A stretch of DNA of 12,646 nt from IMG/VR virus record IMGVR_UViG_2531839662_000020, one strand, 5' to 3'. Below the pieces are notes generated by a model. It was not told the origin of the DNA. It worked only from the letters and a program-made list of their open reading frames with translations, and made no database searches. Made by a program: the position numbers and the translations under genes. Positions 1 to 12,646 of the stretch are shown in pieces. The stretch is from a virus (Duplodnaviria; Heunggongvirae; Uroviricota; Caudoviricetes). Each line of letters opens with the position of its first letter. The stretch's first letter is position 1.

Positions 1-474
1 AGTTTGCTCCTGCCATAACGTGAAGAAGCAATGACCTGGTGGTCCGTGACTTCCCTACGCTGGCATTATCCAGATCAGGTGATACGGGTATTTCTTACTG
101 ATTTTTGTTATCAGTTGATAATTAATAAGTTTTTCAGCAAACAAGAATTAAAAACTTCAAAACTGACCACACAACTGACCACACATTTTGTTGAAGCTCT
201 ACGAACAAAGACGAACAATAACAAACAAAAGGGAAATTTGCTGGCAGTTTTGCTTAACCGTTATCATTTTTCGGCTATCCGTTATCAAGCTGGTGGATGA
301 TCACGGATAACCCGTTATGGGAATCCCCATATCGGCATCATGCCCACCAGCATGAAGTATTTTTCGCGGATGTAAAAATTTGACGGGGCGGGCGGTCCCA
401 TAAGCAATGGGGGGGTAGGGATTCCGCTCCCCCCCCCTCCCGAATGCAATTTTTCTTATATATATACAAAACAG

Positions 475-629
475 TGCGGGTTATGCGGGTTAGCGGGTTA
501 TCTTCGCGTGCTAAGTATTTTTTATTCTTTAATATCAATGCGTTAAAAAATGATATGTTTGAATATTAGCCAAAACGTAACCCGCAAGACATTCAAAATA
601 ACCCGCAAATACCCCCCAAATAACCCACA
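475..629. repeat. Iteron cluster B: 3 tandem TGCGGGTTA repeats, AT-rich spacer, 3 inverted TAACCCGCA copies at about 21-bp phasing
   Basis: Direct copies at 475-483, 484-492 and 493-501. AT-rich stretch 502-577. Inverted copies at 578-586, 599-607 and 621-629 (last one degenerate, TAACCCACA). Same 9-mer as cluster A at 9086-9219. Confidence 0.7.
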
Positions 630-915
630 ACCCCATCAGGAAAATGGGGCCAGTGATGCCACCGAACGGCTGAATCTGGTAACGTTCTGTTGCCTGGTTG
701 CAGTTTGCGGGTCAGCAATACTGACGCACAAAGTTAGCCGTATGTGGCTGTGCGTCCACCAGCTACGCCGGAATGGGGTATTCCGTTTCAACGGAACAGG
801 TATGACGAATATGATCGCACCTTCTCCCGAAAACGGGTTTGCCTGTTTCGGGAAAACGGGCACATGAAGCTGCATAGACATTTTCACTATTCAGGATCTG
901 GCGGGGGAGTTTCTC

Positions 916-1050
916 AATTTCCACCGTTGGTGGAAATTAAACGAATACAGCGAGTTAGGACAAGGTGACTAATGGTCACTCTGTTGCTGCGTCACCATAT
1001 TGATGATCCAGCCCTGTAGTCGCGCCACTTTTCCACCAATGGTGGAAAAG
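916..1050. repeat. Pair of near-identical 23-bp palindromes (10-bp arms, 3-bp spacer)
   Basis: AATTTCCACC-GTT-GGTGGAAATT at 916-938 and CTTTTCCACC-AAT-GGTGGAAAAG at 1028-1050. Related dyads nearby: GTGAC-TAATG-GTCAC at 965-979 and CCCCC-AAT-GGGGG at 1073-1085. Confidence 0.6.
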
Positions 1051-1191
1051 CCCACAGCAGGCCGCCCAGCCTCCCCCAATGGGGGATTGTGGAAGAATCA
1101 ACGGGTTAGGCCTTAATCATCTGCGTAATCATAAGTAATCATAATGTTCATTCATCCAGCGCAATTTTGCGTTATCGGGAATATCAGCAAG

Positions 1192-1476
1192 TTACCGCCG
1201 CAACCGCTCCGGCTTCTTCCAGTGGTAAGTTATTTTTTCCTTCTCCCGGTACATCTCCACGCGGCGACGATATGACAACAACTCCAGAACTCTGATCCGT
1301 ATGTCGCGCATATCCACGCCGTTAAGCTCAATACCGTCACGGCGCATCACCTCAGCCACCACACGCGCGTAATTTTCGGCTATCACGCTGTCCGGCTGCG
1401 TGGCCTCCTGTTTGCCTGCTTCCTGGCTGATTCCGGTAATGCGGCGGATTATTTTTAGTAGTTCGGTTTCGCTCAC
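1192..1476 (-). CDS. Hypothetical protein, 94 aa, last gene of the packaging operon
   Basis: ORF from track with GTG start 5 nt after the large terminase stop, same strand. Arg/Glu-rich and probably helical. No family recognised. Next in-frame Met is 43 codons in. Confidence 0.45.
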   Translation of the reverse strand: MSETELLKIIRRITGISQEAGKQEATQPDSVIAENYARVVAEVMRRDGIELNGVDMRDIRIRVLELLSYRRRVEMYREKEKITYHWKKPERLRR

Positions 1477-1481
1477 TCTCG

Positions 1482-3143
1482 TTATACCCCATCAAACGCC
1501 GCAAGCCGCTCTTTGTGGCTGTCGCTCATATCGAATGCAAATTCCTCATGTTCTGCCTGGAATGTGCCAAACGCCATCAGCGCCGCAACGCTCGGGTCTA
1601 TCTTGTTGGATGATTTTTTCTTGTTCGGCTTGATATTGGCGTTCGCGTCACTCTGCATCACAACATTACTCATTGACCAGGCCAGCACCGGATCGCCACG
1701 ATGCACAATCACCTTCCGGTTAACAAAAACTTCGAACGATTTCGCCGCCGGACTGAAACGAAGGTATGTTTGCGGGAACGGCTCCACCTCAAATCCTGCC
1801 CCCTGTAGCTGCGTCCTCAGGTGCGTGGCGTTCCATGTATCGAAGCCCACCAGCCTGATATTGAAATTCTCTGCATCCGCCATGATGTCATCACGGATAC
1901 GGTCATAATCAATGCAGTCACCCGGTGTTGTGCGTATCCAGCCCGCCTTTACCCACTGGCGATAGATGGCGCGGTTTTTATTGGCGGGGTTCTGTAGCTG
2001 AAACTCCGGCAGATAGTGACGGGAAACCAGCATAATCTTTTTACCGACCGGAAAGGCATAGCACACGCTGGAAATATCGCTGGTTGATGATAAGTCCAGC
2101 CCCGCGTAGCACTCCTGCCCGTATAAATCCGCCTCCGCGAACGTTCCGGCGCACTCCGCCCATGCACCGTTACCCATCCACGGCGTGGCCCCCTGACACC
2201 AGATATTGAATCGCTTAGTGAGCATTTCCACCCACTGCGACGGAATACCCCGCGCTTTCTGGATGGTTGAGGCCAGTTTTTCACGATCGACGGAAACATC
2301 GATATTGGGATTCGCCTTTATCCACATCGCCGGATCGTCAACCTCGCTTTCATCATCCAGCTCGTAAATCAGCACGAACATGGATTCGTTCACCTCTTCA
2401 CCATCCAGTATCTGGCAGCAATAGTCGTAGTGTTGTTTACAGGCTGAAACAACGTTGCTCCCCGATGTGGTGATGGCAAATAATAACCCCTCCGGACGCG
2501 CCCCCATTCCCAGTTCAAGCGCGGAATAAACCCCGTTGTCAGGGTGCAGGTGATATTCATCCACAATGGCAAGACTCGGGTTTGTACCTTCAATGGTTGC
2601 CGCTTTTGCTGCCAGTGGCTTTAACAGGCTGTTGGTTTTCGGGTGTATCACCTTGTGTGCCTGAATATTTACCCGCTTTCGCAACGGTCGGGATAAAAGG
2701 CACATCTGACGCGCATCATCAAACACGATCCGCGCCTGATCACGACTCACGGCGGCGGTGTAAATATCCTGCTGCCCGTTTTCCATAACCAGAAACCAGT
2801 TAGCCAGGATAGCGGCGACCGTGGATTTGGCATTTTTTCGCGGCACTTCAATGAATGCGCTGGTGTATTTGCGCCGTCCGGTGGCCTTAACCTTAAAGCC
2901 CAGGATGCACGCAAAGGCGAACTGCTGCCACGGCTCCAGCTCAATGGGGCTACCGCGCATTGCGCCTTTTACGTGCGGACACACCCTGGAAAAGGCAATA
3001 AACCGCTCCACGACCTCCGGATCGAACGTGTAAAGGGGGTTTTCAAGGTCAGAAAAATACCGTTTAACGGCCTGTTTCAGTCGTTTACAGGCCGTAATTT
3101 TGCCGTTTTTTACGCCTTCTGCGTACTCATGCCAGGCGGTCAA
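1482..3143 (-). CDS. terL: Terminase large subunit (Terminase_1-like)
   Basis: 553-aa ORF with LEPWQ...F motif and P-loop-like VPRKNAKST near the N-terminus, then a nuclease-type C-terminal half. Apparent TTG start preceded by GAGGA. Overlaps the small terminase by 17 nt. Confidence 0.88.
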   Translation of the reverse strand: MTAWHEYAEGVKNGKITACKRLKQAVKRYFSDLENPLYTFDPEVVERFIAFSRVCPHVKGAMRGSPIELEPWQQFAFACILGFKVKATGRRKYTSAFIEVPRKNAKSTVAAILANWFLVMENGQQDIYTAAVSRDQARIVFDDARQMCLLSRPLRKRVNIQAHKVIHPKTNSLLKPLAAKAATIEGTNPSLAIVDEYHLHPDNGVYSALELGMGARPEGLLFAITTSGSNVVSACKQHYDYCCQILDGEEVNESMFVLIYELDDESEVDDPAMWIKANPNIDVSVDREKLASTIQKARGIPSQWVEMLTKRFNIWCQGATPWMGNGAWAECAGTFAEADLYGQECYAGLDLSSTSDISSVCYAFPVGKKIMLVSRHYLPEFQLQNPANKNRAIYRQWVKAGWIRTTPGDCIDYDRIRDDIMADAENFNIRLVGFDTWNATHLRTQLQGAGFEVEPFPQTYLRFSPAAKSFEVFVNRKVIVHRGDPVLAWSMSNVVMQSDANANIKPNKKKSSNKIDPSVAALMAFGTFQAEHEEFAFDMSDSHKERLAAFDGV

Positions 3144-3483
3144 GCTCGTCCTCTTCCTCTGTTTCCGGTGGATTTCTGCGGCGACTTACCGGGTCAAAAC
3201 CCAGCAAAGAAGCCATTTTGATCATTATTCTTTCCGCGTCAGCCTTTGCGCTCAGGGCGGGGTTTCTGCTCTCGCTGCCCTGACTGTTAACAATGCTGAA
3301 CCCGCGCGTGGCAAGGTCTTCGACGGCTTTGCGGTATATGGAGTAGTTAACGCAATATAGCTCCAGATTGCTCCAGTCGGCGGGGGTAAGGTCTTCCCGT
3401 CCGGAAAGCTGGCGCGATTTTTCCTTCCACTGCCTGACCGCGATTTCATCCAGGTAAGCGGGGGCTTTTGGTGGTCTTGCCAT
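3127..3483 (-). CDS. terS: Terminase small subunit, P27 family-like
   Basis: N-terminus MARPPKAPAYLDEIAVRQW is typical of P27-type small terminases and the length is about 118 aa. The longer track ORF (to 3624) is rejected as an N-terminal extension. Sits immediately upstream of terL. Confidence 0.75.
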   Translation of the reverse strand: MARPPKAPAYLDEIAVRQWKEKSRQLSGREDLTPADWSNLELYCVNYSIYRKAVEDLATRGFSIVNSQGSESRNPALSAKADAERIMIKMASLLGFDPVSRRRNPPETEEEDELDRLA

Positions 3484-3771
3484 GTTCTCTTTTCGCCCAA
3501 TTATTTTCAAAAAAAATCCCGTGCACAAAAATTTGAGGAGGCGGTCGGTGTCCGGCAGGGACGGTTTTGTCCTGAAAACCTCCCCCACCCCCTCTGACGG
3601 CCTCACCAGCGATTGCGAAAACATTCCATGACCTCGCGGTCACGGTCGGTTAATTGCTTCGCTGTGGTGCGTTCTGTGCGCCCTGTCCTGTTGGCTTTGT
3701 GCCCTGTCTCCTGTGTCTTCCATAAGTCACGCTGCCTTATCAGTCCACGTATCAGCCTGTTTTGCTCCTGT
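3484..3771. other. Candidate cos / terminase recognition region (HNH-TerS intergenic)
   Basis: 288-bp non-coding gap between the HNH gene and terS, the position cos occupies in HK97-like phages. Contains two 15-bp direct repeats (3676-3690 and 3698-3714), a C-rich tract at 3578-3600 and an A-tract at 3509-3530. Cut site not determinable from sequence. Confidence 0.3.
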
Positions 3772-4212
3772 TCAGTCATCATCGCCATACATCCAGTCGT
3801 TACGGTGTGCCGCCCGTTCTTCCTGCTCGCGATACATGCCCGCCTTACGGTTCGCTTTCGTGGCTGGATCTTCCCGTGTCGTCTTACGGTTGTGGCACGT
3901 CTGGCACAATGCCTGGTGATTCCACTCAGGCCAGAAGAGAACATCACCGCCGCCATTGATGGGAATGATGTGATCCACCACAAGAGCTGGCGTATAAATC
4001 CCCTTAGCCAGACAACGCACGCATAACGGGTTTTTGCTCAGGTACAGGGCGCGGTATTTGTCCCACTGTCGGGAATACCCGCGCGCGCGGCGGTGTCCCC
4101 GTCTGGCATCCTCTGCACGCCATGCAGCCCGCCTGTGCTCTTCACACTTTCCGGACTTCACGCGCTTATTACAGCCCGGCTCAGTGCAGCGCCTTAATGG
4201 TTGCCACGGCAT
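3772..4212 (-). CDS. HNH endonuclease (packaging-associated)
   Basis: 146 aa with CxxC...VDHIIP...N.Q.LC..CHNRKT HNH/zinc-finger motif. Start overlaps the connector stop (TGATG). Located just upstream of terS as in HK97-like packaging modules. Confidence 0.85.
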   Translation of the reverse strand: MPWQPLRRCTEPGCNKRVKSGKCEEHRRAAWRAEDARRGHRRARGYSRQWDKYRALYLSKNPLCVRCLAKGIYTPALVVDHIIPINGGGDVLFWPEWNHQALCQTCHNRKTTREDPATKANRKAGMYREQEERAAHRNDWMYGDDD

Positions 4213-4510
4213 CAGTACACCCCCACATCACGATAAACCGACCAGAGCGCAGAAATAGCCATAGGCAGTTCAGACTGCTCCACAGGTGAAACCGCTTCCC
4301 TGTTCTCGTACAGGAAAGCGATGTACATCAGGCAACCAACACGTATTGCCGGGGTAAATTCCAGCCCGTCTTCAAAACGTTTCCCGATATGCTTCTGGCA
4401 GGCTTCCAGCGCCGCATCGGTATACATTTTCAGAAGTTCGCCTTCTCCGGAAAAGTCATCAAGGCGAAGATGTGCCCTGACTTCATCAGGTGTAATTTTG
4501 TCTTCACTCA
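4212..4510 (-). CDS. Head-tail connector protein, gp6-like
   Basis: About 99 aa from MSEDKITPDEVRAHLRLDD, which resembles gp6-type connector N-termini. Overlaps the portal 3' end by 7 nt. The 128-aa track ORF is trimmed to this ATG. Confidence 0.65.
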
Positions 4511-5718
4511 TCTTTTTCACCTTTAATTTCCACAGTCTGCTTCCATGCCTGGCTGAACTCGTCGCCACCTTCACGCGGCGGCATTCCCTCACGCTCACGG
4601 GCTTCGTTCGGATTCATGATCCCGTTCTTAATCCCTTTCTCATACGTGGCGTAACGTTCAGTAGGTGTGGCGCGCAGTAAATCGGCTGAATCAAACTCAA
4701 CCAGATAACGGGTACCAGGTACGGGAGAAGCCACCAGCAAAGCGGCCTTGATTTGCTGTTCGAAGTTCGCCAGCCACGGACGCATTGTCATAGTCAGAAA
4801 CGCGCGGCTTGCCTCACTGAAATTGCTGTAGGTGCTGTTGCTGTATTCCTGCAGAAAAATCGGCGACACGTTGAACATCCGGGCGATGTCTTCAATGGAG
4901 AAGCGACGGGAGGCCAGCCATTCCGCATCCTGGTTACTCATCCCCAGTTGCTTGTAATCCATGCCCCCTTCAAGGATTGGCGTTTTTCCGGCATTTTTCG
5001 CCCCCTTGTAGCGTTCCAGTGCGTCTAATGCCTGTTTACCTTTCACGCCGTCCAGCCATTCGCCTGACGTGATAATCCCTGCCGCCATCATGCCATCTTT
5101 CATAATGCTGGCTCCGTGACGCTGTTGAGCAAGGCCAAGCCCCAGCGCCTCACGGCAAATCGTGATGGGGGAGCGTCCCAGAAAGCCATCATCCGAGGCA
5201 TAGCGGAGATGCAGAACTTCTTCCTGTAAATACGTGCGCACCGTTCCTGTACAGGGTTCGGTGATGGTATAGCGGTATTTGTGTGCGCCTGTGCGTTCCG
5301 GTACAACACACCCCGGCGCATAAGGATGAAGTGATTTTGGCTGACCGTCCCGCCCCCATTCAATAACCGCATAGGCGTTACCGTTCAGCAGGCAGTGACG
5401 CATCATTGTGCGTTTAAACTGGTAAGGTGTCTGGCACGAATTAGGCTGCTCATTCAGCAGAATATCTACCGGATGACTGTCCAGCCATTCCCGCGCCTCC
5501 CTGCCCTTGTCATTACGTACCAGATACAGATAACACGGCATCGTGGCCACCGCCTCAGCGATGACGGAAACCGCGTTCATCACTGCGGGCAATGATTCAG
5601 CCGTCCCGGCAGAAACATATTCTCCGGATCCGGTATTCGGTACGCCGGACAGCACCAGAAAATCATCAATGGACAGGTTACGTTGCTCGCTTTTTTTACG
5701 ACTAAAAGGCCACCACAT
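4504..5718 (-). CDS. Portal protein, HK97 family-like
   Basis: About 404 aa when started at the ATG at 5718 (MWWPFSRKK...), 1 nt after the protease stop. Size and position between protease and connector fit a portal. The upstream 73 codons of the track ORF overlap the protease gene and are rejected. Confidence 0.8.
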   Translation of the reverse strand: MWWPFSRKKSEQRNLSIDDFLVLSGVPNTGSGEYVSAGTAESLPAVMNAVSVIAEAVATMPCYLYLVRNDKGREAREWLDSHPVDILLNEQPNSCQTPYQFKRTMMRHCLLNGNAYAVIEWGRDGQPKSLHPYAPGCVVPERTGAHKYRYTITEPCTGTVRTYLQEEVLHLRYASDDGFLGRSPITICREALGLGLAQQRHGASIMKDGMMAAGIITSGEWLDGVKGKQALDALERYKGAKNAGKTPILEGGMDYKQLGMSNQDAEWLASRRFSIEDIARMFNVSPIFLQEYSNSTYSNFSEASRAFLTMTMRPWLANFEQQIKAALLVASPVPGTRYLVEFDSADLLRATPTERYATYEKGIKNGIMNPNEAREREGMPPREGGDEFSQAWKQTVEIKGEKDE

Positions 5719-5719
5719 A

Positions 5720-6280
5720 TCACAACCCCGCCAGCTCTGCCCAGCGATGACGATTATTTCCTGCCGGGCGTAATTCAGGGTGCTGTGCAAACAACGAACG
5801 GTGGGCAATCTCCACGCCAGATTCGGGATAAGCAGGCATCGACGTGATCGTGATTTCCCTGAGTTCTGCAGCGGTAACAGTACGCAGATACGGTTTTTGC
5901 GCGATATTCCACTCTTCGCATAATGCGCGAAAGCCAAAGCTCATCCCTGTAATGTCGCCACGCTCCACCAGCGTAAGCACATCTTTTCCAAGCTGGGTAT
6001 CAGGCGGTGTCAGTTCAAAACGTAGCCCGGTGTTGTCCTCAGTCAGTACCAGAGTGCCGGATTTGGTGCGCCCCAGCAGTTGGGTATAGTCATGCTCATA
6101 CAGGCAGCGCACATCATTACCCGCCGCCAGATAGTCAGCAAAAGCCCCCGGCGTGAACTGTTCGCGGAATTCGTCCCAGATAATTTCTGAAAGGCTGTTC
6201 CAGCGAACGGCATACCCCACCAGCTTTTTATTGCTGGCGGTCAGTTCAGATGTGCGGATTTCAAAATCGGTGTTTTTCAT
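5720..6280 (-). CDS. Prohead protease, HK97 family (S78-like)
   Basis: 186 aa with GGAG RBS 8 nt upstream of ATG. Sits between capsid and portal. Family recognised by eye from overall sequence and size. Confidence 0.8.
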   Translation of the reverse strand: MKNTDFEIRTSELTASNKKLVGYAVRWNSLSEIIWDEFREQFTPGAFADYLAAGNDVRCLYEHDYTQLLGRTKSGTLVLTEDNTGLRFELTPPDTQLGKDVLTLVERGDITGMSFGFRALCEEWNIAQKPYLRTVTAAELREITITSMPAYPESGVEIAHRSLFAQHPELRPAGNNRHRWAELAGL

Positions 6281-6296
6281 CGGTGTACTCCATAAA

Positions 6297-6322
6297 GCTG
6301 AAAAAGGAGGCCGCAGCCTCCT
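6297..6322 (-). terminator. Intrinsic terminator-like hairpin between capsid and protease genes (possible attenuator)
   Basis: On the minus-strand transcript: 7-bp GC-rich stem AGGAGGC / GCCUCCU (6305-6311 with 6316-6322), 4-nt loop, followed by UUUUU (6300-6304). Lies directly after the capsid stop at 6335. Confidence 0.4.
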
Positions 6323-6334
6323 CCTTACTCATGA

Positions 6335-7504
6335 CTAGCCAGCTTTCATTTCCAGAATTTTGATGGCGTTTGAATCCACCACACCACCGCCCAGATATTT
6401 ATCCGTGTGGACCTTGTAGAATCCGGGTTCAGTAATGTTGTCCGGTCGGGTGCGAATCCCTGTTACATGATCAACGATGAAATAACCACGACTGAAATCG
6501 CCAACCGCTAGCGGTGCTTTTCCTGCGCCGATGTCCGGCATGGACTCCAGGCAGAAAACAGGACGACCAAGCAACATATCCGGCGCACCTTCTTTAAGGC
6601 TGTCGCGCCAGATATAATCGCCATTCTCATTTTTCAGCTTCTGTAGTGTCCCTGCCGTGCCCGAGTTCATCACCCAGACGGCATTTTTGCGGTATTTCGC
6701 TTTCAGCTTGTAGAGAATGTCGATCAGTTCGTCCGCTGTAATGGCGGTTCCACTTGCCGCTACCACTTTTTCAATGGTGCCAAAAGCGCGGGTTTTGTCA
6801 CTGGTCGCCGCACGGGTGTAAGCCATGAAGCCTTTCGGCTTGCCGTTACCGTCGCCATTAACAAAATCATCCTCTTCGGTGCTGGCGAACGTGTCGGCAA
6901 TTTCGGAGGATAACCAGCCCAAAATATCCACCTCTGAAAAATCCAGGATTTCCTGCGTGGTTTTCGGGTAGGCGTAGATCTGATTCAGCTTGATGGTTAC
7001 ACGTTCAATTTTCGGGGTGTTGGTTTCACTACGTGCGCTGCCTTCTGTGCCTCGTCCTACAGTTGCGCCGCCAGTGGAAACCAGTTTCTGAAACTCATTT
7101 GATTTTGCGGTCTTCACGGTCGCGATCACGCGCATAACACTGTCATCCTGTAGCTGGCGCATGACTTCGCGATCAAGCTCAGGAATTACGGTATATCCGC
7201 CATCCCTGCCGCTGTCAGTGCTGGTGGACAGTGATCGCACATCTCCGGTTACGATGTAGTTACGCAATTCATCAGATGATAATTTCTGGATGCCCGTTCC
7301 TGGCTTGCTGCGTTCTTCATCAGCCACAGACTCGAGGCGGTAAATTTCTGTGTCGAGGGAATCGGCTTTTGCACGCAGTTCATCAAACTGTTTGCCCTCG
7401 TCATCGTTCAGGCTGCGGTTTTCACTGTCGGCTTTTTCCAGCAGGGATCGCATCTGGTTTTTCAGGGCGGTTTTTTGCTGGCGGAGTTCGATTAATTTCT
7501 TCAT
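6335..7504 (-). CDS. Major capsid protein, HK97 fold, with N-terminal delta/scaffold domain
   Basis: 389 aa. N-terminal about 100 aa is charged and coiled-coil-like (delta domain), followed by an HK97-like MCP body. First gene after the candidate late promoter. Confidence 0.85.
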   Translation of the reverse strand: MKKLIELRQQKTALKNQMRSLLEKADSENRSLNDDEGKQFDELRAKADSLDTEIYRLESVADEERSKPGTGIQKLSSDELRNYIVTGDVRSLSTSTDSGRDGGYTVIPELDREVMRQLQDDSVMRVIATVKTAKSNEFQKLVSTGGATVGRGTEGSARSETNTPKIERVTIKLNQIYAYPKTTQEILDFSEVDILGWLSSEIADTFASTEEDDFVNGDGNGKPKGFMAYTRAATSDKTRAFGTIEKVVAASGTAITADELIDILYKLKAKYRKNAVWVMNSGTAGTLQKLKNENGDYIWRDSLKEGAPDMLLGRPVFCLESMPDIGAGKAPLAVGDFSRGYFIVDHVTGIRTRPDNITEPGFYKVHTDKYLGGGVVDSNAIKILEMKAG

Positions 7505-7653
7505 GAAGGTTTTCTCGTATTGGTTAAGATTCAGGACGTGAAACCAACACGGAGGGAGCGCCGCCCGACACTCTCGGCATCTCGCAGATCAACCCGGCAT
7601 CGCGCAGGGGGTCAGGCGGCATTGTGGCGGCTCACGTCTGAGTGCCACACGCC

Positions 7654-7726
7654 AACATATACATAAAAATCAGTATGTAAACATCAGCCAGAATCACCGA
7701 ACAACCTGGAACAACCACGAACAAAT
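7654..7726 (-). promoter_or_regulatory. Candidate activator-dependent late promoter for the capsid operon
   Basis: On the minus strand: -35 TTTACA (7676-7681), 16-bp spacer, -10 TATGTT (7654-7659). Upstream are three direct repeats GGTTGTTC / GGTTGTTC / ATTTGTTC with 10-bp phasing (plus-strand GAACAACC at 7699-7706 and 7709-7716, GAACAAAT at 7719-7726). Confidence 0.35.
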
Positions 7727-7741
7727 AATTTACAAAACCTG

Positions 7742-7770
7742 AAAAAAAGACCTGGAGAAAATCCAGGCCT
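7742..7770 (-). terminator. Rho-independent terminator ending the early/replication operon
   Basis: On the minus-strand transcript: stem 7762-7770 pairs with 7748-7756 (9 bp, one mismatch), loop 7757-7761, then a U7 run (plus-strand A7 at 7742-7748). Lies 9 nt after the stop of the 82-aa gene. Confidence 0.65.
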
Positions 7771-7778
7771 TTATCGCT

Positions 7779-8027
7779 TTATTGTTTCACTGGATCCCGC
7801 ATTCTGCGTCTTATTTTCCACAGATATTCGATCATCGCTTCCACCTGCTCACGATTGGTTGCGAAAATTTCCCCGGTCAGTGAGCTGCGCAGAAAATCAT
7901 GATGATCCACAACAAACAACGCATCGGAAGAAAGCAGACGGCGATATTTTTTTGCTGTCGTGGTTTCCAGATCATCAAAACCATGAAACTTTTTATGTTG
8001 CTGGACTTCTTCAAATGTCACTGGCAT
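7779..8027 (-). CDS. Hypothetical protein, 82 aa, translationally coupled to the ProQ/FinO gene
   Basis: ATG start at 8027 overlaps the upstream gene's 3' end by 10 nt. No family recognised. Followed by the terminator. Confidence 0.5.
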   Translation of the reverse strand: MPVTFEEVQQHKKFHGFDDLETTTAKKYRRLLSSDALFVVDHHDFLRSSLTGEIFATNREQVEAMIEYLWKIRRRMRDPVKQ

Positions 8028-8560
8028 GTATCCCCCTTTGCTGCCCGGCGCTGGCGCTTGTGCTTCTCATTCAGCGCCATCAGCCGCGTTTCTGCCTCCT
8101 GCTGTTCCTGTGGTGTCACTTCCCCACATGGCTGGCCTTTCAGGTCGTATCGTACCCCACCAGCAACCAGGGCGCGGTAATAGCGCGGAGACTGCGCATA
8201 AGATGCCAGCGTCGCACGTAATGCCCCCGGCCCGAATGCCAGCCCCCTGACGGCGAGATCCTGCATCAGGTCGTCGAATATCCCCACCTTAAGCGGCTTC
8301 GGTGCTTCCCTGTTGAATAAGTCAGGCCACATCTCAGTGAGGCGGTTAACGCGCCTGCGGTTTTTGCGCTGGCGTTTGGTCATATGCCGCCACGGTGTCA
8401 CCCCTGTGGGCTGCCCTTTGCGGCTCTGCTGTGCGTTCTGATTGCCGGGTATCACTTTATGCGCCGATGTGGTTTTATCCCGCTCTTGCGCCGCCTGCGT
8501 CGTTTTCTGCGGCGTGCCGTAAATGCCTTTCGGTTTTCGGTTAATGGTCAGCTTTGTCAT
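8018..8560 (-). CDS. ProQ/FinO-domain RNA-binding protein with basic N-terminal extension
   Basis: C-terminal two-thirds (WPDLFNREAPKPLKVGIFDDL...LRATLASYAQSPRYYRALVAGGVRYDLKGQPCGEVTPQEQQEA) matches the ProQ/FinO N-terminal domain pattern recalled from E. coli ProQ. N-terminal about 70 aa is Lys/Arg/Gln-rich. AGGGGAAGG RBS. Confidence 0.75.
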   Translation of the reverse strand: MTKLTINRKPKGIYGTPQKTTQAAQERDKTTSAHKVIPGNQNAQQSRKGQPTGVTPWRHMTKRQRKNRRRVNRLTEMWPDLFNREAPKPLKVGIFDDLMQDLAVRGLAFGPGALRATLASYAQSPRYYRALVAGGVRYDLKGQPCGEVTPQEQQEAETRLMALNEKHKRQRRAAKGDTCQ

Positions 8561-8596
8561 GCCTTCCCCTGTAATTACTCTGTTCGCTGTTGTGAA

Positions 8597-9022
8597 TTAA
8601 AACGGTATGTTATCCCCGTACAGGTCATCGTGCTGGCCTGTCTGTTGTTTTGCCCTGTTCAGTGCGTCAGTGGCCTGCCCCTGTTGGCCTTTTTTGCCGC
8701 CCGGTCGCGCCGTTCTCGCACTGATTACGCTGTCTGCGATGACCTGCCAGCCCTGCCGCGTTTCGCCGTTCTGCCCTGTCCACTGGCTTACCTGCATGTT
8801 ACCCGCCACGTTCACCAGTTCGCCTTTGCGGTGTTTTGCCAGTGCGTCGGCCTGTCTGCCAAACGCCAGGACGGATAACCACATCGTCGCCGTTCCGTCA
8901 TCTGCCTGGCTGCATGGCAGGGGAACCGCCATACTCGCCATCGCCATTTGTGTTCCCTTGCTGGTGGTCTTTAACTGCGGGTCAGCCACCAGCCGCCCGT
9001 AAGCCGCTATCTGTGCTGTCAT
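8597..9022 (-). CDS. ssb: Single-stranded DNA-binding protein (SSB)
   Basis: 141 aa. OB-fold-like N-terminal region (GRLVADPQLK...), Gly/Gln-rich linker, and acidic C-terminal tail DDLYGDNIPF resembling the SSB DDDIPF tip. Confidence 0.8.
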   Translation of the reverse strand: MTAQIAAYGRLVADPQLKTTSKGTQMAMASMAVPLPCSQADDGTATMWLSVLAFGRQADALAKHRKGELVNVAGNMQVSQWTGQNGETRQGWQVIADSVISARTARPGGKKGQQGQATDALNRAKQQTGQHDDLYGDNIPF

Positions 9023-9085
9023 GCTGTCTGCTCTCCGGTTTTAACGTTGATGGTTACGCTTGTTTACACCCTTACGGTGAAATTC

Positions 9086-9219
9086 TGCGGGTTATAATCG
9101 CACTTTTGCGGGTTATAACTGCCGTTTTGCGGGTTACGTGCGGGTTATTGATTTCCTTTTTATTCATACAGTTAATGCACTTATATACATGATAACCCGC
9201 ATAACCCGCATAACCCGCA
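9086..9219. repeat. Iteron cluster A: 4 direct TGCGGGTTA(T/C) repeats (spacing 21/21/11 bp), AT-rich spacer, 3 tandem inverted ATAACCCGC
   Basis: Direct copies at 9086-9095, 9107-9116, 9128-9137 and 9139-9148. AT-rich stretch 9149-9191. Inverted tandem copies across 9192-9219. Lies in the 220-bp gap between the primase-helicase stop and ssb start. Confidence 0.75.
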
Positions 9220-9241
9220 ACTTTTCACCTCACACAGGGGG

Positions 9242-11365
9242 TTAATCTTCTGCCTCAGGCTGGAACATCAGCACGTAAAAAACATGCTGCTTCCCCCCAA
9301 TTTTGCCGAGCGCCTTTTTCTTGTAACGGCGATCGTTACCCGCTTCCAGCATTCCGGCAGCACTCAACGCGCGGGCAAAGTGAGACGGATTAAATCCCTG
9401 TGCTATCTCACCCTCAAATACATGCGGGAACGTGTAAAAACGGAACTCGTCATCTTCGTTTCTGATACTCCCCTTTCTGTATCCGGCAAGTTCTTTAATC
9501 GGTAAATCACGCTCGTCGGTATTGGGCCACGGAAGGTATCTGCTGAATCCGAACGACGCTAAAAAAGCTTCTGCCTGTTCAACCATCTGTTTAAATTCCC
9601 TGTTACCCGTGCCGAACTCCTTCACCCAGGCATTAAAATTATGCTGTATGGCATCGCGGCATTCCTGCTCATCCCAGCCAGTAACATGACCTGAAAGCAC
9701 AAGCGCGGCCTCCAGTATGGCAAATCGCTCCCCCACACGGTGAACCTGTTCGCCGTAGCTCTCCGGTATCAGGTTGCGCCACCGCTCACGGCATGTCCTT
9801 ACCGTGTCCTTTGCCTCCTGCTGGTGTTCTGCCAGCCATTTAACCCACTCACGACCCGCCGCCCCGTGATTTTCTGTCCAGGCATCCTTTAACGCGTCTG
9901 CGTGCGCCTTTCCGGTGCTGTATTCGTGAAATTGCGTGGCTTTTTCCATCGGAACGTTAAGCAGGCGGACAAGCTGCCCCGCTTTGACTTTTATCCCCTC
10001 CGTTTTGAGGAATGTCTCAACGTCCATTTCTCCGGTGCTGATTGCCACCGTGCGCCAGTGTTTGATCTCCCTGTTGCCGCCGTCCTTCGCCCCCTGTAAT
10101 TTCCCCGAACCGTTAAACAGCGTATAGGCTGACGTGGACACCTCCCGCGCGTTTCCGGCCTGGCCTATTTCATCCAGGGGTAAAAGCCCGTCATTGTGTG
10201 CCTCTGCTTCGTTGGCGATACCTAACGCTGTGCCGTACCAGGTCAGCCGCTGCGCGTCCGGCTCTCCCCATAAACTTGATGCGATGTTCTGTGTGGTGGT
10301 TTTCCCTGCCGATGACTGTTCGAAAAGATGTACCCCGAAGCCGTCAGCGCCCACCAGCCCGATTAATGGTGCGGATAACGATACCGCCACACCCAGCATC
10401 ATGGACGGATTACCACCAGCCAGCCGCGCAACGATATCGCGCCAGCCCTCCGCCGTTCCTGCCACGGAATAGCCATTAACAGCAGCCGTTTTTCCGGTAA
10501 ACAGGACTGGCTTTTCGCAATCACCAATGACCGAACCGTCCGGCATGATGTACGCGCCAAAATGCCAGCCCGTTGTTGTGCTTAACTGCCATTCCTCATG
10601 GCTTCCGCTTAACTGCATCCAGTCAGCCAGGATAGCCCTGTATTTACCGTTGGTTGTTACGTTCAGTCCGTGGTCTTTCAGCAACCGCCAGCCGTCACGG
10701 TCGCCAATGCCACCGCACGGAACCGCCATTGTGATGACTTCATGGTTTGCTAATTTTTTCCAGCGCATCACGCGGTAATGCTCTTTACCGATTGTCCCCG
10801 TTCCCAGTAGTTCAAGCGGGGAACATAACCACGTCTCAGGCCGGATAATTTCGCCTGACTGCTTATCCACTTTTGGCGTTACCCAGAAAACACCATCGGC
10901 GCGACTTTCAACGCGGGGCTTTAATTCATCATCGCCCTGGATTTCTGTGATTTTTTTCTTTAAGGGCAACACCAGACTTTCCCCGCGCTCGTATTCGTCT
11001 TTGAGGCGAGGCAACTGGTCGGATAAATCCGCCGGGCTGATGTCAGTTATCCCCGCGTATTCGTATACGGTCTTCACGCCAGCCACAGCCAGCAACGTGA
11101 CGATCTGTGTAAGGCTACGTTCAGTGATGTGCCCTGCGCGGTAAACACGCACACACTGACGGCTATCATCAATAATTTGATAACCGGTAATATCTTTCAG
11201 GTGTTCATCTGACAGAACGACAGGCGGCACATTGTCGGCGGCAATATGCTTACCTGCCCATTCCTGCCACTCTTTCGCATGGCTCCACGCATCACTACCC
11301 GCAAAGATGATAACCTCCGTCATTTTGTCGGCTGGCTGGTGCTTTAAGTTTGGTGCGCGCTTCAT
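9242..11365 (-). CDS. Replicative primase-helicase (toprim-like N-terminus, P-loop NTPase core; DUF927-like)
   Basis: 707 aa. Walker A-like SSAGKTTT in the central region. Overall resemblance to satellite and prophage primase/helicase replication proteins. ATGA overlap with the upstream small gene. Followed by iterons. Confidence 0.8.
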   Translation of the reverse strand: MKRAPNLKHQPADKMTEVIIFAGSDAWSHAKEWQEWAGKHIAADNVPPVVLSDEHLKDITGYQIIDDSRQCVRVYRAGHITERSLTQIVTLLAVAGVKTVYEYAGITDISPADLSDQLPRLKDEYERGESLVLPLKKKITEIQGDDELKPRVESRADGVFWVTPKVDKQSGEIIRPETWLCSPLELLGTGTIGKEHYRVMRWKKLANHEVITMAVPCGGIGDRDGWRLLKDHGLNVTTNGKYRAILADWMQLSGSHEEWQLSTTTGWHFGAYIMPDGSVIGDCEKPVLFTGKTAAVNGYSVAGTAEGWRDIVARLAGGNPSMMLGVAVSLSAPLIGLVGADGFGVHLFEQSSAGKTTTQNIASSLWGEPDAQRLTWYGTALGIANEAEAHNDGLLPLDEIGQAGNAREVSTSAYTLFNGSGKLQGAKDGGNREIKHWRTVAISTGEMDVETFLKTEGIKVKAGQLVRLLNVPMEKATQFHEYSTGKAHADALKDAWTENHGAAGREWVKWLAEHQQEAKDTVRTCRERWRNLIPESYGEQVHRVGERFAILEAALVLSGHVTGWDEQECRDAIQHNFNAWVKEFGTGNREFKQMVEQAEAFLASFGFSRYLPWPNTDERDLPIKELAGYRKGSIRNEDDEFRFYTFPHVFEGEIAQGFNPSHFARALSAAGMLEAGNDRRYKKKALGKIGGKQHVFYVLMFQPEAED

Positions 11366-11676
11366 TTTGCCTTTCCCCGTTCACGAATAATTTCACGTAC
11401 TGCCTTAATGCGTTCCATTCCTGTAACGCGCATGATTCTGTCGATGTCGCTTAATTCTGCTGGTGGTGCTTTACTTACCAAGGTGAACTCCCTGTCAAAG
11501 CGCATATGTGACGACACGCAGGGATGCGCATAACCTTCGCGGATATAGGTCACACGAAAATCATCGACGGTTTTGATCGTTATCGTGCTGCCGTATTTAT
11601 CCTGGAAAATATCGCCGGGGCGGATTTCAGGCCGAGCGGGGCCGCTGGCAGTAAAGCCAGAATTTTTCTTTTTCAT
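11362..11676 (-). CDS. Hypothetical protein, 104 aa
   Basis: ATG with GGAG upstream. Stop overlaps the primase-helicase start (ATGA). Basic C-terminus. No family confidently recognised. Confidence 0.55.
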   Translation of the reverse strand: MKKKNSGFTASGPARPEIRPGDIFQDKYGSTITIKTVDDFRVTYIREGYAHPCVSSHMRFDREFTLVSKAPPAELSDIDRIMRVTGMERIKAVREIIRERGKAK

Positions 11677-11681
11677 GTTTT

Positions 11682-11900
11682 TTACTCCAGAGGCAGCTTT
11701 TTAGCGGCGAGCTCAATATCAGATGTCAGAGAAACCTGTGTATTTGCCAGGTCTAACAACAAAGAAATAAGAATTTCTTCTCTGCTATCGGATTTATCGG
11801 TGCTAAGGCTGTTCATCCACATATTGACGACTTCCCTGATTTTTTTCGCAGAGTGCAGGGCTTCAAATGCCAGGTCTTCAATATCATGTTTATTTCGCAT
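11682..11900 (-). CDS. Hypothetical protein, about 72 aa (start uncertain: 11900, 11915 or 11930)
   Basis: Track ORF 11682-11930 has a TTG start. The in-frame ATG at 11900 is preceded by a G-rich SD-like run. Overlaps the 3' end of the upstream gene. Predicted helical. Confidence 0.45.
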   Translation of the reverse strand: MRNKHDIEDLAFEALHSAKKIREVVNMWMNSLSTDKSDSREEILISLLLDLANTQVSLTSDIELAAKKLPLE

Positions 11901-12252
11901 AATCGCCCCCGCCATTTTCACAATCAGCAATCAGGATGGCTTTTGCCTCATTCAGCGCCATATCAGCACTAAATTGCATAACAGCCAGTGAGTGAGGAAC
12001 GAAAGCCCCGGCATATTCTGTTTCGCTGGTGGCCTCAATGGTAATCACACGCGGTTGTGCCGTGCTCAGGGCGATAAAACGCCAGATGTATTTATTCAGG
12101 TTGTGCAAGTCCCGCCCTTGCGGGTGTGTGGTATGATTTAACATAGCTACCTCGATAATCTTGCTATCGTTGGTGGTTAGAAGCCCGGTTAGTGTTAGCG
12201 CACTGCCGGGTTTCGTCGTTTGTATTTCAATAAAACCATTGGTGTGTTTCAT
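11890..12252 (-). CDS. Hypothetical protein, 120 aa, first gene of the early operon (alternative start at 12144 gives 84 aa)
   Basis: 3' portion of the 247-aa track ORF. The part upstream of 12252 is antisense to the plus-strand gene and low-complexity, so is rejected. ATG at 12252 lacks an SD; the ATG at 12144 has GAGGT 5 nt upstream. Confidence 0.45.
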   Translation of the reverse strand: MKHTNGFIEIQTTKPGSALTLTGLLTTNDSKIIEVAMLNHTTHPQGRDLHNLNKYIWRFIALSTAQPRVITIEATSETEYAGAFVPHSLAVMQFSADMALNEAKAILIADCENGGGDYAK

Positions 12253-12340
12253 GTTATTTTGGAGTGAAACACACGTCAAGCCTTTTTTGTATTTCTTTTT
12301 TGTGTATACTGAAACACACCAAATTTGAGGAGTTTCAGTT
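12241..12340. promoter_or_regulatory. Divergent control region with three copies of TGAAACACAC(C/G)
   Basis: Copies at 12241-12251 (inverted, overlapping the ATG at 12252), 12264-12274 and 12310-12320. The first two form an 11-bp-arm inverted repeat with a 13-bp spacer. Plus-strand -10-like TATACT at 12305-12310 and GAGGAG RBS at 12326-12331. Confidence 0.5.
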
Positions 12341-12646
12341 ATGGCGACTACCAACAAAAACGCTAAATCACAATTGACCACCGTCAGAGTCCCCCACGAT
12401 GTTATGGAGGGCATGGAATCCGTAAAACTGGACGGCGAAAGCAACGCCGGATTCATAGTAACCGCCATGCGCGGTGAGATCGCCCGCCGCCAGGCAGAAG
12501 GAAGCGGAGAAAATCCCCTGGTTTCTTCGCTCGATGCACTGGCGCAGGTGGAAAAAATTGGAGTCAAGGCTGCCGAGGAGATCGGGCAACTCGTCGCCGT
12601 CGCGCGTGAAGAACTCCAGCGCCGCAAGGCCAAAGAATCAGAATAA
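12341..12646 (+). CDS. Putative small DNA-binding regulator (possible ribbon-helix-helix fold)
   Basis: 101 aa. Strong GAGGAG RBS 9 nt upstream of ATG. Only plus-strand gene, divergent from the early operon. N-terminal LTTVRVPHDVMEGMESV fits a beta-strand-then-helix RHH pattern; fold assignment is tentative. Confidence 0.6.
   Translation: MATTNKNAKSQLTTVRVPHDVMEGMESVKLDGESNAGFIVTAMRGEIARRQAEGSGENPLVSSLDALAQVEKIGVKAAEEIGQLVAVAREELQRRKAKESE

Follow-up and report, generated by a model that had tools for sequence, protein, structure and literature searches.

A single-stranded DNA-binding protein gene next to the putative replication origin of a capsid-forming PICI in Escherichia coli

RESULTS

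A cf-PICI between thiM and rcnR

The window, i.e., the whole stretch of 12,646 nucleotides analyzed here, was found to be 99.6% identical to E. coli UMNF18, in which the corresponding element spans the genes from a tyrosine integrase to terL. An att direct repeat marks the island end in the window (Table 1), and positions 1-158 are the thiM-side chromosome. In the UMNF18 locus (L002), the copies of this repeat at 6159-6188 and 21874-21903 lie 15,715 bp apart and flank the segment from int to terL. The recurrence of the repeat beside a tyrosine integrase at the thiM-rcnR site bears out the original prediction that the ssb gene studied here is encoded by an island.

Capsid-forming PICIs (cf-PICIs) are elements of 10 to 18 kb with an integrase, a replication module, and their own capsid, protease, portal, connector, HNH, TerS, and TerL genes, but without tail or lysis genes (bioRxiv 10.1101/2025.02.11.637232). 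The approximately 15-kb element harboring the window has the gene content and size of a cf-PICI (bioRxiv 10.1101/2025.02.11.637232; bioRxiv 10.1101/2022.09.08.507074), and neither the Pfam hits nor the UMNF18 annotation placed tail or lysis genes in the int-to-terL element. Elements of this class also have an AlpA-type activator and are induced and mobilized by a helper phage; a small helix-turn-helix regulator is annotated in UMNF18 just beyond the window edge.

Table 1. Features of the island segment in the window (positions are those of the window)
Feature	Position	Strand	Basis and remarks
Island end, 30-bp att direct repeat AAAACTGACCACACAACTGACCACACATTT	159-188		Exact repeat in UMNF18
Packaging module	1482-7504		Pfam hits (capsid, portal, TerL, and HNH) and UMNF18 RefSeq annotation; seven genes below
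TerL	1482-3143	-	
TerS	about 3127-3483	-	
HNH	3772-4212	-	
Head-tail connector	about 4212-4511	-	
Portal	about 4504-5718	-	
Prohead protease	5720-6280	-	
HK97-type major capsid	6335-7504	-	
orf82, 82-aa ORF	7779-8027	-	PHROG 1957 (function unknown); overlaps the ProQ gene end
ProQ/FinO-domain protein	8018-8560	-	36 nt 3′ of ssb; Pfam ProQ, E = 9.2e-25
ssb CDS	8597-9022	-	141 codons plus stop (8597-8599); ORF list, raw sequence, Pfam, TIGR00621, PHROG 44
C-terminal tip DDLYGDNIPF, residues 132-141	8600-8629	-	Conserved motif; dN/dS
Linker, residues 101-131 (ARTARPGGKKGQQGQATDALNRAKQQTGQH)	8630-8722	-	Short, Lys/Gln/Gly-rich, unusually well conserved
Predicted OB-fold ssDNA-binding domain, residues 1-100	8723-9022	-	AlphaFold and Foldseek
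Shine-Dalgarno GGAG	9033-9036	-	8 nt 5′ of the ssb ATG; read from the sequence
Iteron set A, four copies of TGCGGGTTA[T/C]	9086-9148		Spacing 21, 21, and 11 nt; repeat search
AT-rich spacer, 43 bp, presumed unwinding element	9149-9191		About 26% G+C; sequence and composition profile
Iteron set B, three tandem copies of ATAACCCGCA	9192-9219		Inverse orientation to set A; direct and inverted repeat search
Island replicase, 707 aa, DUF927 primase/helicase-like	9242-11365	-	Pfam DUF927, E = 5.8e-46
DUF4222 protein gene, 5′ of the replicase gene	11362-11676	-	Pfam DUF4222, E = 3.4e-18

The window and UMNF18 differ between the capsid gene and orf82, where UMNF18 is about 555 bp longer (L002 positions 13503-14331 versus window positions 7505-7778); the extra DNA holds a 507-bp plus-strand hypothetical ORF that is missing from the window. 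The terS and HNH genes, annotated as frameshifted in UMNF18, are intact in the window. These differences indicate that the window stems from a close relative of UMNF18 and not from that assembly itself. A stretch of about 1 kb (189-1190) separates the att repeat from the first gene of the island; it holds short ORFs only and might contain a cos/pac site or a regulatory region. Within it, positions 189-432 appear specific to the type of integration site or integrase, because other island copies match only from about 432. One such copy, a near-identical cf-PICI (about 99% over window positions 432-12636) in NZ_OZ282453.1, interrupts the terL gene of a resident prophage, leaving N- and C-terminal pseudogene fragments on either side of the island, at 4727-5470 and 20513-21541. 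That island has an integrase different from the one of the thiM-site copy, and its ssb is frameshifted. A search of the window against Rfam found no RNA family.

The protein encoded immediately downstream of ssb, which has a ProQ/FinO domain, carries a basic N-terminal extension of roughly 65 residues, and in other islands a PerC-family regulator gene replaces or accompanies it. A satellite-encoded RNA chaperone of this kind may merit a separate study.

The ssb gene encodes a short protein of the bacterial SSB family

The ORF listing gives ssb as a minus-strand ORF with an ATG start and a product of 141 aa ending in ...TGQHDDLYGDNIPF, also quoted there as ...QQTGQHDDLYGDNIPF. Both the coordinates and the DDLYGDNIPF tail, as originally read, were correct when compared with this list and the raw sequence. 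Two ORFs on the plus strand that overlap ssb (8384-8878 and 8607-9002) were regarded as shadow ORFs, since it is the minus-strand frame that homology and purifying selection support.

Residues 5 to 99 of the product matched the Pfam SSB family PF00436 (E = 7.9e-16; 58.5 bits against a cutoff of 26), and the protein scored 61.6 bits with the NCBIfam model TIGR00621, above its cutoff of 53.95. It was assigned to PHROG 44, "single strand DNA binding protein," with an E value of 2.9e-38. These matches agree with the predicted identity, as does the annotation of WP_000126644.1 in UMNF18, which is 100% identical to the island SSB and is named "single-stranded DNA-binding protein." In a PDB sequence search, nearly all matches were SSBs, with those of Thermus and Deinococcus at the top (1e-10) and that of E. 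coli at 1.9e-5. With NF006533/PRK09010, the model of the E. coli-type chromosomal SSB, the protein scored only 26.7 bits against a cutoff of 260. On these profile scores, the island SSB belongs to a separate clade of short SSBs, apart from the orthologues of the E. coli-type chromosomal SSB.

An AlphaFold model, built from an alignment of 63 sequences, had a mean pLDDT of 85.8. Residues 1 to 100 were modeled as an OB barrel at a pLDDT of 93 to 98, with strands at 3-11, 16-19, 25-36, 44-54, 69-82, and 88-100 and a helix at 55-62, and residues 101 to 141 had a pLDDT of 46 to 66 with a weakly predicted helix at 114-127. In a Foldseek comparison of the model with the PDB, the best 50 matches were all bacterial SSBs, with E values down to 2.6e-9 and target-normalized TM scores of 0.7 to 0.83. 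The OB fold, on which the original prediction depended, is thus present in the model. Taken together, the family matches and the model indicate that ssb encodes a genuine bacterial-type SSB, which would be expected to bind ssDNA.

The chromosomal SSB of E. coli (178 aa; PDB 1EQQ/1EYG) shares with the island SSB the Pfam and TIGR family, the OB fold, and a disordered C-terminal region that ends in I-P-F with Asp at position -5 and an aromatic residue at -7. However, the two are only 27% identical over about 100 residues, a value on which BLASTP and a profile alignment agree. Three of the four aromatic residues that stack on ssDNA are retained, with W48, F54, and W81 of the island SSB corresponding to W54, F60, and W88 of E. 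coli SSB, and W48 and F54 are at least 90% conserved across 63 diverse relatives. The fourth, W40, is Gln39 in the island SSB, where the loop is also five residues shorter, and His55, a residue for tetramer stability in E. coli SSB, is Leu49, which is invariant in the island family. Bacterial-type SSBs bind ssDNA with high affinity, as homotetramers or as dimers of double-OB chains. Since neither W40 nor His55 is conserved and the loop is shorter, the binding mode and oligomeric state of the island SSB could differ from those of E. coli SSB. The linkers differ as well, being about 30 aa, Lys/Gln-rich, and conserved in the island SSB but about 55 aa and Gly/Gln/Pro-rich in E. coli SSB.

A semi-canonical C-terminal tip under purifying selection

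The last eight residues of E. coli SSB, DFDDDIPF, include four Asp residues, whereas those of the island SSB, LYGDNIPF, include one. Relative to the host tip M-D-F-D-D-D-I-P-F, Asp at -6 and -4 is replaced by Gly and Asn, respectively. The original prediction had described a canonical acidic IPF tail resembling the host tip. Its host-like part stands, as IPF, Asp at -5, and the aromatic residue at -7 are all kept, but with two of the three consecutive host Asp residues changed, "canonical acidic" overstates the likeness, and from its sequence we regard the tip as semi-canonical. Being less acidic than the host tip, it may bind host partners weakly or selectively.

This form of the tip is a family trait. 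The tip peptide of the island SSB is QHDDLYGDNIPF; DDPYGDNIPF is commoner, and close relatives mainly end in DDPYGDNIPF or DDPYGDGIPF. Across 98 close protein clusters, conservation reached 100% at D137, 99% at F141, 96% at P140, and 94% at I139, while position -4 varied freely (N, G, D, E, or S) and L134 was a minority allele, with Pro in 90%. The family motif [FYW](-7)-x-D(-5)-x-[ILV]-P-F was found in 96 of 101 close full-length clusters when scored as [FYW]-x-[DE]-x-[ILVMA]-P-F. More distant representatives, at the 50% identity level, typically end in P-F-[DN]-D-x-[IL]-P-F, and only G74 and F141 were invariant among 63 relatives with identities down to 32%. Nei-Gojobori estimates from 61 unique coding sequences gave a dN/dS of 0.19 for the OB domain, 0.16 for the linker, 0.22 for the last 10 codons, and 0.15 for the last 5 codons; the codons of D137, I139, P140, and F141 vary synonymously with the amino acid kept. 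An O157-type variant carries NRRKTTGTQGNQPPAGG in place of the linker, a wholly different sequence, and still ends in DDPYGDDI[PS]F. Because the motif is conserved, is under purifying selection, and is kept despite replacement of the linker, these comparisons argue that the tip is functional, the terminal Phe being its constant element.

Two departures from the motif were also seen. An SSB variant in some Klebsiella islands and one E. coli island ends in ...PYDDDF, an acidic tail that has the terminal Phe but lacks I-P. Two IMG/VR copies end in ...NIQF, a Pro-to-Gln change at what we take to be the position equivalent to that of ssb113.

The linker of the island SSB (RPGGKKGQQGQATDALNRAKQQ) is as constrained as the OB domain and is conserved in Escherichia, Klebsiella, Enterobacter, Leclercia, Citrobacter, and Pectobacterium. 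Such conservation is unusual for a disordered SSB linker, and it is left unaccounted for by the replication-accessory model proposed below as well as by every rival reading. We rejected the idea that the class of linker tracks the type of replicase, as one and the same linker is found in SSBs accompanying each of the three types.

A replicase gene and a putative origin lie directly upstream of ssb

The island replicase matched PHROG 1139, "DNA primase," with an E value of 5e-173. The DUF4222 gene 5′ of it has the same position in two other loci and is a conserved member of the replication module. The replicase and ssb genes are separated by 219 bp, which contain a 10-mer iteron (TGCGGGTTAT) in four direct and three inverted copies around the AT-rich spacer. 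The iterons begin 23 bp past the replicase stop codon, and ssb lies 54 bp downstream of the iteron-spacer segment (9086-9219). This arrangement, in which an AT-rich segment between two sets of iterons immediately follows the replicase gene, is the layout of PICI/SaPI-type origins, and we therefore consider 9086-9219 a putative PICI replication origin. Of 31 loci with a DUF927-type replicase, 22 have the 9-mer TAACCCGCA as the commonest repeat of the gap, and islands with a RepA-like or Toprim replicase have other iterons at the same position.

A promoter and terminator scan from the replicase gene to orf82 found no terminator-like site on the coding (minus) strand and no sigma-70 consensus. 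Because neither was found, cotranscription of ssb with the replicase gene is weakly favored. The placement of ssb directly after the replicase gene and the iteron-bearing putative origin fits a supporting role in the replication of the island itself.

The SSB is widespread and pairs with three replicase types

Relatives of the island SSB, annotated as SSB, were found at 2,346 places in 1,804 of 5,426 complete E. coli genomes, with up to six copies per genome. Among GTDB representatives, they were present in E. albertii, Klebsiella, Enterobacter, Leclercia, Citrobacter, Pectobacterium, Edwardsiella, Scandinavium, and Raoultella, and 440 IMG/VR contigs, many of 9 to 15 kb, carried a relative. 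In 50,697 records of sequenced phages, every match was below 60% identity, the best among the matches listed being about 30% or less. Only 92 of 72,556 plasmid records had a match, and the sole match above 80% identity was in a record of 4.9 Mb. With phage identities of about 30% or less and rarity on plasmids, an origin of this SSB clade in plasmids or known phages was rejected.

In 92 of the 99 loci, ssb is preceded on its own strand by a replicase gene whose end lies 194 to 1,064 bp away, and each type of replicase comes with its own iterons in the intervening gap. DUF927, RepA-like, and Toprim replicases were all found together with SSBs of at least 94% identity, in cf and non-cf islands alike, with a ProQ or a PerC gene downstream of ssb depending on the island. 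Because a nearly constant SSB thus accompanies three unrelated replicase and iteron cassettes, its partners are more likely, on this comparison of loci, to be proteins of the host (or the helper) than the island replicase.

The gene was intact in approximately 92 of the 99 loci. It was frameshifted in two, including the NZ_OZ282453.1 island, truncated in two others, and deleted in a Shigella cf-PICI. Since a few islands that are otherwise complete have a broken ssb or none, the gene may be helpful rather than essential. These occasional frameshifts and truncations and the single deletion are what one might expect of a passenger gene decaying without a current function. However, a dN/dS of 0.15 to 0.22 in every part of the gene, the high share of intact copies, and the spread of the family over a third of the E. 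coli genomes and at least nine other named Enterobacterales genera make that explanation exceedingly improbable.

A demonstrated helper phage also encodes an SSB

HK106 is a demonstrated helper that mobilizes the prototype cf-PICI EcCIEDL933 (bioRxiv 10.1101/2022.09.08.507074). No SSB is annotated in its genome. Its gp36 (NC_019768, 26238-26621, minus strand), a 127-aa protein annotated as "hypothetical" and without a Pfam hit, matched the PHROG 44 SSB family (E = 3.3e-27) and ends in PVYDDSIPF; its gene adjoins that of Erf. The notion that lambdoid helpers lack an SSB was dropped, as a tblastn hint, the translation, and the PHROG match all showed gp36 to be one.

The SSB of this helper bears on two other explanations for the island gene. 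In the first, the island SSB would mainly serve recombination, by recruiting to satellite ssDNA either host RecO or a single-strand-annealing or mediator protein of the helper (Erf, Red-beta, or Sak4 type). This would drive recombination-dependent replication and the formation of concatemers for packaging. Phage SSBs often pair with annealing proteins through their tips, as does the HK620 SSB, whose last six residues (NDYPPF) are required to recruit its cognate Sak4 (PMC5928155). The HK106 SSB sits beside Erf and has a similar tip, and neither the ORF list nor Pfam revealed a recombinase encoded in the window. Nevertheless, the island ssb comes directly after a replicase-origin cassette in 92 of 99 loci, never with a recombinase gene beside it, and helpers with an SSB of their own would have no need of the island's. 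On balance, a primary role in recombination appears unlikely.

In the second, the island SSB would act as a competitor or decoy, its semi-canonical tip titrating or selectively withholding the proteins of the SSB interactome from host or helper SSB and thereby favoring the satellite or hindering the helper. Up to three SSBs with an x-I-P-F tip can coexist in an induced cell, i.e., those of the host (DFDDDIPF), the helper HK106 (VYDDSIPF), and the island (YGDNIPF), and the island tip differs from that of the host reproducibly at -4 and -6. Since HK106 encodes such an SSB, three-way competition for tail partners among host, helper, and satellite is plausible. However, the prototype cf-PICI does not reduce helper titers (bioRxiv 10.1101/2022.09.08.507074), and the free variation at position -4 fits tolerance better than tuned selectivity. 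We therefore consider it quite unlikely that competition is what the protein is for.

DISCUSSION

A probable role in satellite replication

We propose that the island ssb encodes a functional bacterial-type SSB that probably serves as an accessory protein of the satellite replication module, reaching host partners through its tip. Upon helper induction, transcription from upstream would run through the DUF927 replicase gene and across the putative origin into ssb. The replicase would bind both sets of iterons and open the AT-rich spacer between them, and the OB domain of the island SSB would coat the exposed ssDNA. As SOS, helper replication, and satellite replication may all draw on the host SSB pool at this time, the island SSB would supplement it with extra capacity. 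Its tip, Y-G-D-N-I-P-F-COO-, would then dock in the pockets by which host proteins such as Pol III chi, DnaG, and PriA hold the host SSB tip, allowing the host replisome to elongate satellite DNA. The dependence of partner binding on the tip has precedents in the HK620 SSB, whose tip recruits Sak4 (PMC5928155), and in E. coli SSB itself, which is reported to lose Pol IV binding without its C-terminal eight residues (PMC3401449).

An interplay with immunity has also been considered, in which the SSB would either trigger or shield the island from defenses that sense foreign SSB-coated ssDNA, such as Retron-Eco8 and DARNA. Phage SSBs are reported to activate such systems (PMC13402713; bioRxiv 10.64898/2026.02.22.705581). 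However, no PADLOC model matched the SSB or its neighbors, and nothing at the locus links it to defense, making this reading very unlikely.

A further proposal takes up the conserved linker along with the tip. The SSB could be a portable "host-adaptor," whose semi-canonical, reduced-charge tip and conserved linker helix (GQATDALNRAKQQ) would together select a subset of the SSB interactome, so that, in an induced cell with host, helper, and satellite SSBs, the identity of the SSB coating a strand would decide which genome gains access to the replisome or recombinase. We doubt that this is the case; if true, it would be a previously unrecognized layer of the conflict among satellite, helper, and host, and it could explain why one SSB is retained while the upstream replicase and origin cassettes are swapped freely.

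It is already known that mobile elements, both phages and plasmids, encode SSBs with host-like tips, and the present gene is labeled as an SSB by PGAP. In the PICI and cf-PICI literature that we searched, the island SSB is not mentioned. What seems new, within that literature, is the systematic presence of an SSB in the replication modules of enterobacterial PICIs and cf-PICIs and the modular way in which it is combined with the replicases. One or more copies of this satellite SSB are present in about a third of complete E. coli genomes. If the replication-accessory proposal is true, the SSB would rank with int, alpA, and rep as a regular component of the replication module of enterobacterial PICIs, and it would provide a simple handle on how satellites obtain host replisome components during helper replication; in other respects, it is the kind of gene expected in a mobile element. 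The occurrence of one SSB with three replicase and origin types would also allow a clean genetic test of whether its function is directed to the host or to the replicase.

Comparison with known systems

Phage T7 gp2.5 would be alike in its mode of action, being an OB-fold protein with an acidic tail, whose essential C-terminal Phe docks onto replisome proteins. It is not homologous to the island SSB, forms a dimer, and binds the polymerase and helicase encoded by the phage, not host proteins.

The SCCmec island pairs the Cch helicase with LP1413, an ssDNA-binding protein of its own. Like it, the cf-PICI encodes both a DUF927/MCM-like replicative helicase and a predicted ssDNA-binding protein, although the similarity between the replicases was weak and below threshold (E = 1.7e-10 for the SCCmec Cch replicative helicase model against the island replicase). 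LP1413 is not known to be an OB-fold SSB or to carry an I-P-F tip. SCCmec resides in Staphylococcus and is not known to be packaged by phages.

Conjugative plasmids, such as F and those of IncI with an ssb in the leading region, encode an extra SSB with a host-like tail, which is thought to cover the element's own ssDNA. These plasmid SSBs are close relatives of the host SSB. Unlike them, the island family is not close to the host SSB, as its NF006533 score indicates, and it is rare on plasmids.

The PHROG 44 SSBs of temperate phages, e.g., HK106 gp36 (HK97 gp40-like) and the HK620 SSB, are, like the island SSB, small proteins encoded by mobile elements and ending in host-like tips (YDDSIPF and NDYPPF, respectively). 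Island SSB and HK106 gp36 share no significant pairwise similarity, and their genes keep different company: the phage genes adjoin those of recombinases (Erf and Sak4), whereas the island ssb adjoins the replicase-origin cassette.
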